Assembly (NCBI GenBank): GCA_963693365.1
Contig: CAVNZM010000010.1
Coordinates: 7,441,794-7,505,793, forward strand
DNA: 64,000 nucleotides
Origin: Amoebidium appalachense
Taxonomy: Eukaryota > Protista > Ichthyosporea
Direction: 5' to 3'
Made by a program: the position numbers and the translations under genes. Positions 587 to 40,169 of the stretch are shown one piece after another; position 1 is the stretch's first letter, and every line of letters starts with the position of its first letter. The notes beneath the pieces are model-generated. The model had not been told where the DNA came from and ran no database searches. It saw nothing but the letters and a program-made list of their open reading frames with translations.

Positions 587-816
587 ACTACAATAAGGGT
601 CTCATTTCCGTGCTTTGTCTCCCGGGACAGAGGGGTCGCGGCTCGTGTATTTGTCCTTATACGGATTTTGATTGGCTGCCCGGTGGCTTACGGGCCATGC
701 CTGCCGGTACAGGGCCGGCTGGGCCGGGCCAGGGGCACATATGTGCACTGGAGCTGTTAGCTGGCGGTGCGGGCCGGACCGGCCCACTGTGCACGTGTGG
801 GTGTACCTGCACGTGT
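587..816 (+). repeat. Left terminal inverted repeat (230 bp)
   Basis: Reverse complement of 39941-40169; by eye one substitution and one 1-bp indel. Confidence 0.97.
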
Positions 817-1170
817 TGTGCAATATTAATTTTAACAAGAATAATTGAAGGGATGAAAAAAAAACATGGAGAACATGCATGTGTACACGTATTAATGATA
901 CCAACTAGTCTGTATACATGTACATATACATGTACGTGCCTGGCGCACGTGCTGGAAACTTCTTTGAATAGCCTAGGAAAAGCCGTCCCAAAGCCCTAAG
1001 CCGCCGTGGGAATAGAAAAGAAAATAAAGAAAACAGCAGAATGCCGCGGAAAGCCACGGCGAAACCGCAAAGGCTTTCCAGAAACCGTGTACGAAGCCAG
1101 TGTATACGTAAACAAAGCCACTTCGCGAATTCGAAGTGCTGATTCAAAAAAATTTGGACCCGCGCGTTCC

Positions 1171-1325
1171 GATTGGTGGACCTAAATTTAAGCTGTACCC
1201 TATTGGTCAAAAACGCACCGCGAAGAATGTTTCCATCGGTGTCGCGAGTGTACATGTGGCAGCGAACCGGCCATGACCGTCTTTTCCAGATGGTCATGGA
1301 CCCGGCGAAAGAAAACTATATAAGC
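1171..1325 (+). promoter_or_regulatory. Putative Pol II-type promoter (two ATTGG/CCAAT boxes + TATA) of the leftmost viral gene
   Basis: ATTGGTGGACCTAAA, CCTATTGGTCAAAAACGCACCGCG and AAAACTATATAA; the same three blocks recur inverted at 39626-39777. Confidence 0.6.
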
Positions 1326-1366
1326 AGCCTCACCGGTCACTTCTTTCACCACCTGCAAGCATCCAA

Positions 1367-2308
1367 ATGCAAAGCGAAAGCTCTGTACACATCTACACCT
1401 CCATCTACTTCTACCCTCCTTCACAAACCAACCATGAAGCCCGCCACCAGCAAGACTTCCGCCGTGCCAAGGGCGCCGGGCAAGACAAAGAAAACAAGCT
1501 TCCTCCTCCACTCAAGCCCATCAACCCCAACATCACCACCAGCACCAAGATGACCGTCGCCGGGATTCCTAACCGGGTGTGGCTGGGCCGTGTCACCAAC
1601 AAGGCCAGCTACAGCGCCGTGTACATCCTCAGCAAGCACATCTTTGAGACCGAAGATGAGATGGTGCTGGAAAACACCAACTTCAACGCCCTCCGCATCA
1701 AGAGCGACAAAGCCACCATCGGCCAGTGCCGCCTCCTTGCTTCCCTGCACACGGCCCTTCTCAACATCCCCCCTGCTGTGATCCGCAAGGCCCAGGCCGT
1801 ACACGGCTTCCTCAGGGACGGTGTAGACCTGAACACCGTGCGCACCACCACCCCTGCCGTGTGGAGCAGTCAGTGGGAGGAGGGCATGTCTGCTGCATTG
1901 GGCGCGGATCCCGTCACAGGTGAAGAGGTCCTGGACAACCTGGACGGCGGGGGCTTCAACATCACCATGGACTGGCCCTACAAGAGCGATGATGTCGTGA
2001 TCCTGCTCAACAAGAACCACATCACCAAGGACCAGTACAGCAAGATCCTTGTGGACGCCAACAGCGGCAAGAAGGTGTACGGCCACGTTACGTTTGCTCT
2101 TACTGGTGTGATCTATTCTGTTCTGAATGCCACTGTGCGTGCAAAGCTAGAAGTTAGAAGGATTGAGATGTGGAATGAAGATGCTAGTATGTATGAACAA
2201 AACCAGCCCGATGAGTATGCTCTTGAGACTCTGAAGAGGGCCGGGAGCCCCTATCCGTTCACTGATGCCCCGGCTGGGGAAAGCACCCCTAAGAAACGCA
2301 AGATGTGA
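1367..2308 (+). CDS. Viral protein with C-terminal NLS (PKKRKM); possible ssDNA-binding protein; start uncertain (1367/1434/1550)
   Basis: 313-aa ORF with strong C/G third-position bias from ~1550; beta-strand-like C-terminus (VTFALTGVIYS…AKLEVRRIEM). Function is inference. Confidence 0.75.
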   Translation: MQSESSVHIYTSIYFYPPSQTNHEARHQQDFRRAKGAGQDKENKLPPPLKPINPNITTSTKMTVAGIPNRVWLGRVTNKASYSAVYILSKHIFETEDEMVLENTNFNALRIKSDKATIGQCRLLASLHTALLNIPPAVIRKAQAVHGFLRDGVDLNTVRTTTPAVWSSQWEEGMSAALGADPVTGEEVLDNLDGGGFNITMDWPYKSDDVVILLNKNHITKDQYSKILVDANSGKKVYGHVTFALTGVIYSVLNATVRAKLEVRRIEMWNEDASMYEQNQPDEYALETLKRAGSPYPFTDAPAGESTPKKRKM

Positions 2309-37100: not shown

Positions 37101-39563
37101 GGCTCGGAGGGTTGGCCGGGCAGGGGGTCGACCAGGTTGACGACGGCCATGTACACCACGTGGCGCACCTTCCTGTCCTCGGGCTGGCTGCCCTCCTCGG
37201 CCACCGGCATTGTCTCAAACTTTGAAGTCGAGGACAATGTCGGACACTGGCCTCCTCGTCTGCTTCCACGCGCTGCTGCTGTTGGGGGGCAGGTGGTGGG
37301 GGCACACGTGGTCACCGGTGGGCATGGCATCGTCGTCTAGCCGTGGCTGACGTGCAGGTGGGTCCTCCCCCTCCTCCTCTTCCTCCCCTTCCCCCCCTCC
37401 CCCTCCCCCTCTTCCTCCTCCTCTGCTGCTGCTGCTGCTGCTGCTGCCCCCCTTGCGTGTGTAGCAGGCCAGCCGGTCACACCCCTCCACTGTGCACATG
37501 TACACGGGTTCGGCCGGCCGCTTGCTGCGTATGTAGCAGGGGTGGTCAATGGGCATGTAGCCACCACAGCCTGGGCAGTCCACGTCGCTGCATGCGTGCT
37601 GCTTCCATGTGTCGTCCTTTGGCTTCTTGCCCCGGCCCTCCTCCTCCTCCTCCCCCTCCCCCTCCCCCTCGTCATCTCCCTCGAAGAGACCCTCCCCCCC
37701 AAAGAGGTCCTCCCCCTCCTCCTCCTCCTCCTCCTCCTCCTCTGTGTCCATGGGCATGGCATGGCCGTGCTGCCCATCAGCCCCCTCCTGCTCCTGCTGC
37801 AGCTGCGCGCGCAGTTGGCGCACGCGCGCGTAGCGGTACTTGAGGTGGTACCTGCCGGCCGGGTTGCCCGTGAGCACTGTGCCCGTGGCGCTGCACTTGC
37901 TCATGATGCCGTGCACGCACGTGTCCCCCCTGCACCAGAACACACGGTCGCACGTCTGACCCTTGTGGTTGTCCATGCAGGTCTTGGAGGGGAAGATGCC
38001 GTTGCAGCCCGCGCATGTGTACGGCCAGCCCTCCTCCCCCAGCTCGGCCAGCTGCCGGCGCCGCTCCATGGTCCACTGGCATGCCCCGGCAAAGTCGGTG
38101 AGTGACCCCTTGTTGCCGCAGTTGTCGCACTGGTTGATGCATATGTGCGCGCCGTACTTGTCCCGCCTGACGGTCCTGTTGCAGTAGAAGCATGTGGTGT
38201 ACTGACGGTGGAGGCTGCCTTCGTACTTGGCCAGGTTCAGCCGTTCGTAGACATGGCTCACGTGCCTGACAATGGGCACGTAGTGGCGCAGCTTGTGGAA
38301 GTAGGCCATGTAGATGGTGCACAGCTGGGCAGGGGGTATGCCAGTGCTCATCTCACCGAACCTTGCCAGCAGGAGGCCCTTGCTGTCCCCGCCCAGCAGC
38401 ACGAGGCGCAGCCGGCCACTGTGGCCCTGGTCATGCAGCGCCTGGTTGAGCTTGGACACGGCCACCTGCAGCTGATGGGGGGTCAAGCCGAACTGGCCAG
38501 GCAAGGGCAGCTCGTACTTGTTCTGCAGCACATGGGCTGCTCGGGCCAGCCGGCGCAAATAAAGATCGGGGTGCTTGACTGTGTGGCGTGTTTTGGGCGG
38601 CAGCACGAGGCTGCACACCCTGCATGTTGCCCCGGTGCGCGTGTTGGTGTGGGTGCCGGTGCCGAGCACTTCCTCGGCCGTCAGCAGCTTGCATAGGATG
38701 TGGTTGTCCGCACGCCTGCGTAGATCTGATCGTTGCATGTCTGTGGGCAGTTTGTAGCTCTCGTTGGCGTTGGCCGGCTGCTTTACCCAGTGCGCCGCAC
38801 CGTACACCAATGACACCAGCCCGCACCATGTGCCGGCCACCTGCCTCAGCACGGGTTCATCCCCCCTGTGCTCCCCCACGTCCACCCCGGAGGGCGGCAC
38901 GTTCACAGCCATGCCAACCATGGTGCCCACGTCGGGCACGTCGGCCTTGTGCTCCATGCGCGCCACGCCCCTGAAGGCAGCGCTGTCTGCACCCCGCTCC
39001 AGACTTGCACCCCCGCACCCCCCGCTGGGCTGCAGGTCCGATCGGCGCACGATGGTGAGGTGCACCTGGGATGTGTTGTCGATGTAGGTTTCCGCTGCGC
39101 TCTGGGTGCGCTCACGTATGCTCTCCATGAACTTGAGCACAATGGCGGCCACGTCACCGTCATATTCGGTCAGCCCGCCCGCTGTGAACACACGGGTGCC
39201 TGCCTGCACGTCCTCACCCTCTGATCCCTCCTGCATGGCCACCCCCTGCCTCTCCACGCGCATGCTCAGGATGCGCATGAGCAGGCGGTCGCCAGGCACT
39301 ACCCCGGCCCGGCTTATGGCGTCCGTGATGATGGCCGTGAAGAAGTCGGGGAACTCGGTCACGTCCAGGCGTCGGTTGACGCGGTAGTCGTACACCATGG
39401 AGCGCACGCCCAGCCCTCTTGCTTGGTCGTTCTCAGTGTGTGACTCCAATCGCCACATGGGTGGGCGGCCGGCCGGTGGGGGGTCCAGCCTGTCCATGAT
39501 GTCCAGAAACTCGTCAATGTTAGCGTCCCAGTAGGGATCCGCGGCATAGTCCTGAGATGCCAT
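34181..39563 (-). pseudogene. polB: Protein-primed family B DNA polymerase (~1790 aa when repaired) with N-terminal TP/vOTU-like/Zn-finger region and Vsr-like nuclease insertion; frameshifted in ExoI
   Basis: ExoI IVLD|FET split between ORFs 37215..39563 and 34181..37330; ExoII HNGGGFD; ExoIII YCKKDV; YVDVTSLYP, KLFLNSLWGK, YMDTDS, APKTY, KVKGI; FHGCAFHGCPRC…WECDW insertion. Confidence 0.95.
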
Positions 39564-39625
39564 GGCTTAAAGTTTTTGTTTGCGTTTCAGTCTTTTGCAC
39601 ACAAAAAAAGAAGCCGTAAGCCGCC

Positions 39626-39777
39626 CTTTTTATAGTTTTTTTTTCCCGCCTTCCAGAACGCCCCGTGCATGCTCGTGTATGCTGGATGTGTACGGATATT
39701 GGCGACAAAAGAAAAAAAAAGCCGCGGTGCGTTATTGACCAATAGGAACTCGGTTGCGCTTTTTTAGGTCCGCCAAT
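39626..39777 (-). promoter_or_regulatory. Putative Pol II-type promoter of polB (two CCAAT boxes + TATA)
   Basis: Inverted counterpart of 1171-1325; TATA lies ~70 bp upstream of the polB ATG. Confidence 0.6.
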
Positions 39778-39940
39778 GAGACGCCTGCTCGAAACATTCT
39801 TTTGATCTGGGACTGTGCATATGCAGCCGCGGCGTTTTCCACGGCCGCGACGGCTTTCTCCCGGCCGCGGTGCCACGTGCGCCAGGCACGCGTGTGTGTT
39901 TGTTTTATTATTTATTTATTTATTTACTTACTTAAAGCCG

Positions 39941-40169
39941 ACACGTGCAGGTACACCCACACGTGCACAGTGGGCCGGTCCGGCCCGCACCGCCAGCTAA
40001 CAGCTCCAGTGCACATATGTGCCCCTGGCCCGGCCCAGCCGGCCCTGTACCGGCAGCATGGCCCGTAAGCCACCGGGCAGCCAATCAAAATCCGTAGAAG
40101 GACAAATACACGAGCCGCGACCCCTCTGTCCCGGGAGACAAAGCACGGAAATGAGACCCTTATTGTAGT
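39941..40169 (-). repeat. Right terminal inverted repeat (229 bp)
   Basis: Reverse complement of 587-816. Confidence 0.97.

Follow-up and report, generated by a model that had tools for sequence, protein, structure and literature searches.

An integrated and decaying Polinton-like virus that encodes VLTF3 and likely belongs to an ichthyosporean group

Positions 587–40169 of a 64,000-nucleotide stretch of contig CAVNZM010000010.1 (assembly GCA_963693365.1; the whole stretch is referred to here as the window) are occupied by an integrated element that is bounded by terminal inverted repeats (TIRs) and a target-site duplication (TSD). The element contains about 22–25 intronless genes, in line with the ∼25 of the initial annotation, and these include genes for a protein-primed DNA polymerase (pPolB), a retroviral-type (rve) integrase, an A32-like packaging ATPase, a double-jelly-roll (DJR) major capsid protein (MCP), the late transcription factor VLTF3 and two DNA methyltransferases. 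The analysis reported here supports the initial annotation in part: it upholds an integrated virus of the Polinton type with VLTF3 and without a recognizable adenain protease.

The ends of the element are sharply defined. In a self-comparison of the window, the segments 587–816 and 39941–40169 form a pair of 230-bp TIRs with 99.1% identity. Their terminal bases, ACTAC...GTAGT, differ from the AG...CT ends of canonical Polintons. The target repeat has a paralogue at 43625–44240 that is uninterrupted and has only one CCTCT, and contigs from two sequencing runs, X1 and X4, carry an identical empty junction. As this pentanucleotide is found once at the empty paralogue and flanks the element at both ends, the TSD is 5 bp long, in agreement with the range of 5–6 bp given for Mavericks and mavirus (PMC8547959). 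The element spans 39,583 bp, or 30,506 bp after subtracting a nested 9,077-bp insertion, and the TIRs, the TSD and the size of ∼30.5 kb claimed for it are thus all confirmed. Its description as complete is correct for the ends and fails for the genes, which are affected by frame breaks, by duplication within the integrase gene and, in one case, by the insertion. The GC content of the element is 56–59%, versus 49% in the right flank.

A second short block of homology, at 1170–1210 and 39695–39775, lies beyond the TIRs at both ends and contains paired CCAAT boxes that precede the TATA box of each terminal gene. The virus was inserted ∼40 bp from the 3′ end of a repeat (1–586 and 40170–40220) that resembles a long terminal repeat (LTR) and whose paralogue at 43294–44240 ends in TGTTG...CAACA. 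Next to the repeat at the site of viral insertion comes TGGCGC (∼40214), similar to a primer-binding site, so that the virus may have integrated into the 5′ LTR of a retrotransposon.

Protein families were assigned with Pfam and backed by PHROGs and NCBIfam, against which 29 open reading frames (ORFs) were scanned (Table 1); families not seen in this way were sought with Pfam at an E-value of 0.1 in 128 six-frame ORFs of at least 95 aa. The initial annotation had been made to depend on whether the protein encoded at 17201–18966 would model as a DJR, and it does so. The frame that starts at 17201 meets a stop after ∼29 codons and the gene goes on in a different frame; the product of 17251–18966, modelled by AlphaFold2 with 118 sequences, is a DJR (pLDDT 77.9, pTM 0.77) in which low-pLDDT stretches at residues 93–140 and 208–294 correspond to large surface insertions. 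The best Foldseek matches of this model are the MCP of PBCV-1 and other MCPs (E-values of 2e-13 and 9e-19), with DJR capsid proteins of iridoviruses and African swine fever virus also on the list and the MCPs of Sputnik and other virophages ranking low. In the ESM Atlas, the MCP was linked to DJR-like clusters at 0.97–0.98 with recognition below threshold, which is weak evidence. No Pfam capsid family recognized this protein or 30 of its relatives, and its alignment profile had no match among PDB sequences. The pPolB, the rve integrase, the A32-like ATPase and the MCP of the proposed core set are therefore confirmed, and the penton is not: the candidate at 13706–14783 gave a predicted structure, built without an alignment, with a pLDDT of only 34, and had no match in PDB or Pfam. 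Its label reflects a position and a C-terminal pattern that we take to fit a penton protein.

Table 1. Features of the integrated element and its borders (aa, amino acids; nt, nucleotides; positions are those of the window; 'no family' refers to the scans described in the text)
Feature	Position	Strand	Evidence and remarks
Left TSD, CCTCT	582–586	n/a	Paralogous empty site, CCTCT at 44203–44207
Left TIR, 230 bp	587–816	+	First bases ACTAC
ORF1, 313 aa	1367–2308	+	No family; TATA box 50 nt upstream (1317)
ORF2, 423 aa	2814–4085	-	No family; TATA box 122 nt upstream (4207)
Two small ORFs, 231 aa and 84 aa	4722–5668	+	No family
Gly-rich 220-aa ORF and 80-aa ORF	5820–6744	-	No family
Phage-type Dam N6-adenine methyltransferase	6779–7309	-	Pfam PF05869 1.4e-12; PHROG 111 1e-25; NPPF motif at residue 75
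rve (retroviral-type DDE) integrase	7410–8888	-	Pfam rve_3 5.9e-5; PHROGs transposase 2.7e-8; D-D-E motifs
Small ORF	8869–9366	-	No family
Membrane protein, 249 aa	9504–10253	+	6–7 predicted helices; no family
Fibre-like protein 2, likely one gene	10260–12246	-	N-terminus shared with fibre 1
Fibre-like protein 1, coiled coil, intact	12277–13650	-	N-terminus homologous to fibre 2
Candidate penton (minor capsid), two frames	13706–14783	+	Break near 14320–14365; assignment unconfirmed
Lys/Pro-rich gene	15046–16010	-	No family; break in the window near 15470 in a G run, where X1, X4 and X8 contigs differ
Cys-rich ORF, 104 aa	16086–16400	+	No family
A32-like packaging ATPase, intact	16403–17158	+	Pfam PF04665 2.5e-10; 36 homologues
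DJR MCP	17201–18966	+	AlphaFold2 and Foldseek; frame break near 17284
Pro/Thr-rich gene	19402–21247	+	450-bp tandem duplication; interrupted by nested insertion
Nested non-viral insertion, 9,077 bp	21248–30324	n/a	Perfect 40-bp TIRs; GC 43%; interrupts the gene at 19402
VLTF3-like late transcription factor, 280 aa, intact	31715–32557	-	Pfam PF04947 1.4e-13; TATA box 65 nt upstream (32622)
C5 cytosine DNA methyltransferase, intact	32618–33514	-	Pfam PF00145 5e-19; PHROG 116 3e-33; PPC motif
pPolB, split over two frames near 37220–37330	34181–39563	-	Pfam pPolB 5e-43; TATA box 71 nt upstream (39634)
pPolB N-part, 782-aa ORF	37215–39563	-	Likely terminal protein, vOTU with Cys247/His427, Zn-finger region
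pPolB C-part	34181–37330	-	Exonuclease and palm
Right TIR	39941–40169	-	Terminal bases GTAGT
Right TSD, CCTCT	40170–40174	n/a

The 782-aa ORF and the ORF downstream of it belong to a single pPolB gene, as one profile built from 87 homologues spans both, matching the former at residues 320–438 (E-value 4e-13) and the latter from position 456 onwards. Cys247 and His427 align to columns that hold Cys and His in 40 of 40 homologues, so that pPolB likely retains the catalytic dyad of a vOTU protease, a domain that has been proposed to cleave off the terminal protein (Krupovic et al., 10.1101/2024.03.18.585575). Adenain was found in none of the 128 six-frame ORFs with Pfam and in none of the 29 ORFs with PHROGs and NCBIfam, where a remote homologue could still hide among the ORFs without a family. 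The absence of a protease in the initial annotation thus holds for adenain at the sensitivity of Pfam and has to be qualified by the likely vOTU dyad. The VLTF3 gene and both methyltransferase genes, which were also part of that annotation, are confirmed by their Pfam scores.

The element is whole from end to end, yet this copy is defective, and its decay is recent. The MCP break near 17284 is shared by the contigs of X1 and X4 and is therefore no assembly slip, with the reservation that these two runs may be the source of the window; the same agreement, with the same reservation, was seen for the break near 14320 in the penton candidate. In the integrase gene, a 90-bp in-frame tandem duplication (8086–8280) doubles the motif with the catalytic Glu. 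The breaks near 11841 in fibre 2 and near 15470 in the Lys/Pro-rich gene are probably assembly errors, because both sit in G runs where the contigs of X1, X4 and X8 all disagree with the window. Run X8, which has a different organism label, contains a near-identical copy of the element, with 66 substitutions over 9,139 bp; indels are present in it at the positions of both capsid breaks, and its integrase gene is free of the duplication. It is this combination of near-identity and difference at several lesion sites that dates the decay as recent, and a 99% identical copy in another sample that differs at these sites points to recent activity. As its MCP gene is broken, the copy in the window could not finish its cycle alone. 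Little of the element is covered in run X20, although this does not prove that it is missing there, and no RNA run was among the sequencing runs listed as carrying element sequence. Four very small runs from one sample (X9–X12, 2–3 million letters) each have 43–53% of the words from 9500–19400, a share that might be a sign of enrichment of the element.

Such lesions could also be those of a self-synthesizing transposon that is past virion formation and is losing its capsid genes. Both capsid genes are broken here, the MCP break is shared by X1 and X4 contigs, and no virions were reported from the elements of Amoebidium after demethylation (PMC11244446). Decay is not selective, however: pPolB and the integrase have been hit as well. 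The ATPase and fibre 1 are intact. The MCP retains a confident DJR fold and has a full-length relative with 52% identity, and the X8 copy differs at the capsid break sites. We consider this explanation quite improbable.

The MCP is a divergent protein. A word search of 5.8 billion proteins retrieved a single homologue (52% identity, full-length), and a profile search of 1.84 billion representatives yielded 434 homologues, with six cluster representatives at E-values of 1e-30 or better. A quick IQ-TREE search with SH-aLRT support only, run on the first 70 of the 118 rows of the alignment, placed the MCP inside a nine-row clade with support of 99. Of its eight companions there, only two are labelled with an organism, and both come from ichthyosporeans: SARC_11267 of Sphaeroforma arctica (KNC76227.1), which is 32% identical to the MCP of the element, and EP00122_P009443 of Pirum gemmata. 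These capsid neighbours suggest that the host is an ichthyosporean or a protist related to them. MCPs of S. arctica have been mentioned previously (Bellas & Sommaruga, 2021; PMC7805220). The pPolB is of the PF03175 class, with ∼30% identity to the PolB proteins of fish and invertebrate Mavericks and of the Larimichthys adintovirus and at most 33% among the 120 matches listed; in a 94-row FastTree tree, it lies outside a 73-row group (support 99) that contains all 19 named animal sequences. None of five IMG/VR pattern scans, which used the MCP, VLTF3, the ATPase, the ATPase relative P0006 and a five-sequence ATPase alignment, retrieved a relative. One of two metagenome scans was empty and the other gave a single contig, L001, with an ATPase neighbour at 29% and a different, uninformative gene set. 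On that contig, positions 42–5443 hold an A32 ATPase (29% to P0006) beside a helicase-like 584-aa ORF, probably a fragment of an unrelated Polinton-like virus (PLV). No protein named Amoebidium was found among the homologue matches or look-ups for the MCP, the ATPase and pPolB.

The closest description in the literature is that of the adintoviruses of Amoebidium appalachense (Sarre et al., 2024; PMC11244446), which are integrated, ∼29–30 kb long and flanked by terminal repeats, and many copies of which are degenerate. According to the passages devoted to them, these viruses encode VLTF3, Dam, major and minor capsid proteins and a PolB nearest to those of adintoviruses, with VLTF3, not normally encoded by other PLVs, probably taken from a giant virus. 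The element in the window has the same size class, terminal repeats, VLTF3, Dam, MCP and adintovirus-class PolB. The same passages do not mention a C5 methyltransferase, an rve integrase, a membrane protein, two fibres or a 5-bp TSD, some of which may appear in Fig. S4B of that paper, and contain no promoter analysis of the kind given below; the likeness is one of description. The initial claim that the gene set is novel is therefore largely lost to the Amoebidium elements.

Nor is VLTF3 confined to them, having been noted in coral polintoviruses (PMC11131425), in the figure key of the MELD virus (PMC8502044) and in ∼30% of the Zephyr VC123/VC126 PLVs (10.64898/2026.06.19.733378), and most PLVs are stated to lack a capsid protease and to encode methyltransferases (PMC7805220). 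Because of these reports, the gene set that the initial annotation called chimeric has to be regarded as already known, and the proper comparison is with PLVs rather than with the 15–20-kb Mavericks of animals. With its DJR MCP, its A32-like ATPase and a TIR-flanked genome within 15–45 kb, the element is a PLV in the wide sense; with VLTF3, Dam, a PolB nearest to adintoviruses and ∼30 kb between terminal repeats, it is likely a member of the Amoebidium-type group.

Comparison with other systems leads to the same placement. The group 1 Maverick-Polintons and animal adintoviruses share with the element a PF03175 pPolB with terminal protein, vOTU, exonuclease and palm, the rve integrase, the A32 ATPase, the DJR MCP, TIRs and a 5–6-bp TSD (10.64898/2026.06.19.733378; PMC8502044). 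As described there, however, they are half as large (15–20 versus 30.5 kb); the element adds VLTF3 and two methyltransferases, and its pPolB lies outside the animal group. With double the size and no adenain detected, we rejected a group 1 identity. The Zephyrvirus VC123/VC126 PLVs, some with pPolB (10.64898/2026.06.19.733378), and the VLTF3-bearing coral polintoviruses (PMC11131425) similarly combine VLTF3 with a PLV-sized genome. For the Zephyr PLVs, by contrast, the authors state that they found no endogenous examples, the MCP is related to that of nucleocytoplasmic large DNA viruses, and there is a large lipase ORF that the element lacks. Mriyaviricetes resemble the element in their small genomes, VLTF3 and lack of RNA polymerase and are presumed to be nuclear, but are described as having VLTF2 and a HUH endonuclease and neither DNA polymerase nor integrase (PMC11253617), whereas the element has pPolB and rve. 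Among the 128 six-frame ORFs there was no match to RNA polymerase subunits, VLTF2 or HUH families, and a mriyavirus identity was rejected on the presence of pPolB and the absence of HUH and VLTF2 matches. A virophage identity was rejected for want of a Pfam match to a virophage MCP family or a cysteine protease and for the low Foldseek rank of virophage MCPs. Literature searches pairing polintons or adintoviruses with Sphaeroforma, Amoebidium or ichthyosporea retrieved no dedicated description of the MCP clade, and its capsid type may be assigned to a named group in figures or in the supplements of a 2026 preprint; the main text of Bellas 2023 (PMC10120064) has no mention of Ichthyosporea, Sphaeroforma or VLTF.

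That the element might instead represent a separate, undescribed lineage, with VLTF3 gained independently of the Amoebidium elements, would be compatible with the mechanism outlined below. The divergence described above (one 52% MCP homologue in 5.8 billion proteins, six representatives at 1e-30 or better, no IMG/VR relative and one distant 29% locus from two metagenome scans) would fit such an origin, as would the C5 methyltransferase, membrane protein and rve integrase that the Amoebidium report does not name in the passages cited; VLTF3 is present in several unrelated PLV groups, which makes repeated gain plausible. Yet the published description agrees with the element in size, in Dam and VLTF3 and in the class of PolB, and both named capsid neighbours are ichthyosporean, so that an independent lineage seems somewhat unlikely to us. 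The distinct lineage of the initial annotation is thus borne out as far as divergence goes, and its gene combination had already been described. Overall, the element adds a new and divergent member to a group that is described already, although hardly characterized.

Promoter sequences bear on the mode of expression. The TATAWA motif occurs nine times in the element, on both strands, and four of these occurrences lie 50–122 nt upstream of ORF1, ORF2, VLTF3 and pPolB. A TATA box thus precedes four of 19 gene starts, compared to a mean of 0.47 in dinucleotide shuffles (P = 0.001), and none of the five virion-module genes. Given that no viral RNA polymerase was found, nuclear transcription of the early set by host RNA polymerase II (Pol II) is the simplest reading, and the distribution of TATA boxes suggests early transcription by host Pol II with VLTF3 as a late switch. 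The transcription control of giant-virus type that was initially proposed likely accounts for only half of the picture, as the replication genes have TATA boxes of the host type. A motif consisting of A5 and TGT is found ahead of three of the 19 starts, those of the MCP gene and of two small genes, compared to a mean of 0.12 in shuffles; it was chosen post hoc and may overlap poly(A) signals. Three sites just upstream of genes, including that for the MCP, have the composite form A6–8 TGT, 6–9 nt, TAATAAA (6772 and 9466 on the minus strand, 17157 on the plus strand), which may be a late promoter or else serve as poly(A) signal for the preceding gene. A literature search on late promoter motifs of polintons together with TATA returned nothing relevant.

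Taken together, we consider it fairly probable that the element is a 30.5-kb Polinton-like double-stranded DNA virus, integrated and decaying, likely of a VLTF3-bearing ichthyosporean group and likely self-replicating in the host nucleus. A different role, that of a virophage-like satellite which needs a co-infecting giant virus and whose VLTF3 tunes or hijacks giant-virus late transcription in the cytoplasm, deserves attention: several isolated PLVs (Gezel, Tsv-S2a/b) depend on giant viruses, and Sarre et al. raise this possibility for Amoebidium, which also carries giant-virus insertions (PMC11244446). The methyltransferases could shield the virus against giant-virus restriction systems, and the A-rich motif before the MCP and two other genes, although chosen post hoc, would also fit a satellite. 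We regard the satellite as unlikely, for the canonical TATA boxes ahead of pPolB and VLTF3 point to nuclear host Pol II, the intergenic G runs and GT repeats have the same style as the host flanks, and neither a virophage MCP family nor a protease was detected.

Several observations weigh against a self-replicating nuclear virus of the Amoebidium type. Membership in that group is based on gene content and two named MCP neighbours; the inner node that joins the MCP with S. arctica has support of 92 only, and the pPolB sits on a long branch whose placement was flagged as unsure. The pPolB frame break may be an assembly error, and the vOTU region received no score in a local profile search, the dyad coming from a global alignment. 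The TATA pattern comprises only four genes and was first spotted by eye, the starts of the Dam, rve and C5 methyltransferase genes also lack a TATA box, and CCAAT boxes, present at 11 of 19 starts, do not discriminate. The late-factor role of VLTF3 in this element is one that we assume from its poxvirus name, and its partner VLTF2 was not detected in the 128 ORFs.

Under the favoured reading, that of a nuclear virus, the cycle may proceed as follows. Host Pol II would read the TATA promoters beside the TIRs and before VLTF3, producing pPolB, VLTF3 and two early proteins. Replication would be primed at the TIR ends by the terminal-protein domain at the N-terminus of pPolB, and the terminal protein would then be released by vOTU cleavage, as in the model of Krupovic et al. 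(2024). VLTF3 would shift transcription to the genes for the capsid, the ATPase and the fibres, which have no TATA box, after which the ATPase would fill DJR capsids with linear genomes; like those of most PLVs, these capsids would need no adenain to mature. The rve integrase would insert the genome, and the Dam and C5 methyltransferases might mark viral DNA for protection or regulation. A search for depleted 4–6-mers that would name the methylase target found none.

The remaining genes give fewer clues. The two fibre-like proteins, both with coiled coils, share an 80-aa N-terminus (35% identity, E-value 8e-14); the role of fibres, given to them in the initial annotation, is plausible but putative. 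Fibre 2 had no phage match. Its C-terminus (10260–10470, minus strand) forms a hydrophobic Gly-rich hairpin, LDLVGMIPMVGD, with no Pfam match; the hairpin resembles the TG motifs of pre-toxins and could be a membrane-entry segment. The membrane protein, previously described as having seven transmembrane segments, has six clear segments with hydropathy of at least 1.6 and a weaker one at 1.47. A rhodopsin identity was rejected, as its sole Lys is residue 32 and there is none in the last helix to bind retinal. The Pro/Thr-rich gene probably resumes at 30325–30833, beyond the nested insertion. No significant match was obtained in PDB sequence searches with the N-part of pPolB, the C-part of the penton candidate, ORF1, the 4722 ORF, the membrane protein or fibre 2, nor in an ESM Atlas search with ORF2 or a scan of Rfam. 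Small ORFs of 60–130 aa that look coding lie near the capsid module and VLTF3 (14829–15049, 18977–19369 and 31202–31420, all on the plus strand).

The nested insertion has no ATG-started ORF longer than 196 aa in the ORF list and appears to be a non-autonomous TIR element of an unrecognized superfamily, with AT-rich subterminal regions rich in GATATC words; no further copy of its TIR was found within the window. It encloses a ∼6.5-kb repeat (22736–29240), a second copy of which lies at 42381–49912. The two copies, ∼6.5–7.5 kb long and non-coding, hold arrays of ∼183–186-bp units (24790–26702 and 45570–46734), and the second bears extra insertions, including the LTR-like repeat. Within the second copy, a 472-codon ORF (48146–49564) has a middle part that by eye resembles non-LTR reverse transcriptases at their C-terminal end, with no Pfam match at an E-value of 0.01.

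Among the papers found, the gene combination of this virus is already in print, as a few sentences and supplementary figures. The copy described here contributes its exact ends, a TSD for which the empty site is available, a complete map of the genes, a capsid clade with links to the genomes of two ichthyosporeans, and the promoter pattern, which makes the choice between an autonomous nuclear virus and a parasite of giant viruses testable. VLTF3 is a hallmark of giant viruses, and its presence on elements with pPolB and rve bears on gene exchange between Polintons and Nucleocytoviricota. More tentatively, and as a possibility that we would not yet favour, these elements may form an unclassified clade of temperate nuclear viruses of the unicellular relatives of animals, with a two-step cascade in which early genes are transcribed by host Pol II from TATA promoters and a lone VLTF3 then reprograms host Pol II onto the capsid genes with neither viral RNA polymerase nor VLTF2. 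If true, this cascade would be the smallest system for working out the function of VLTF3, a universal gene of nucleocytoviruses.

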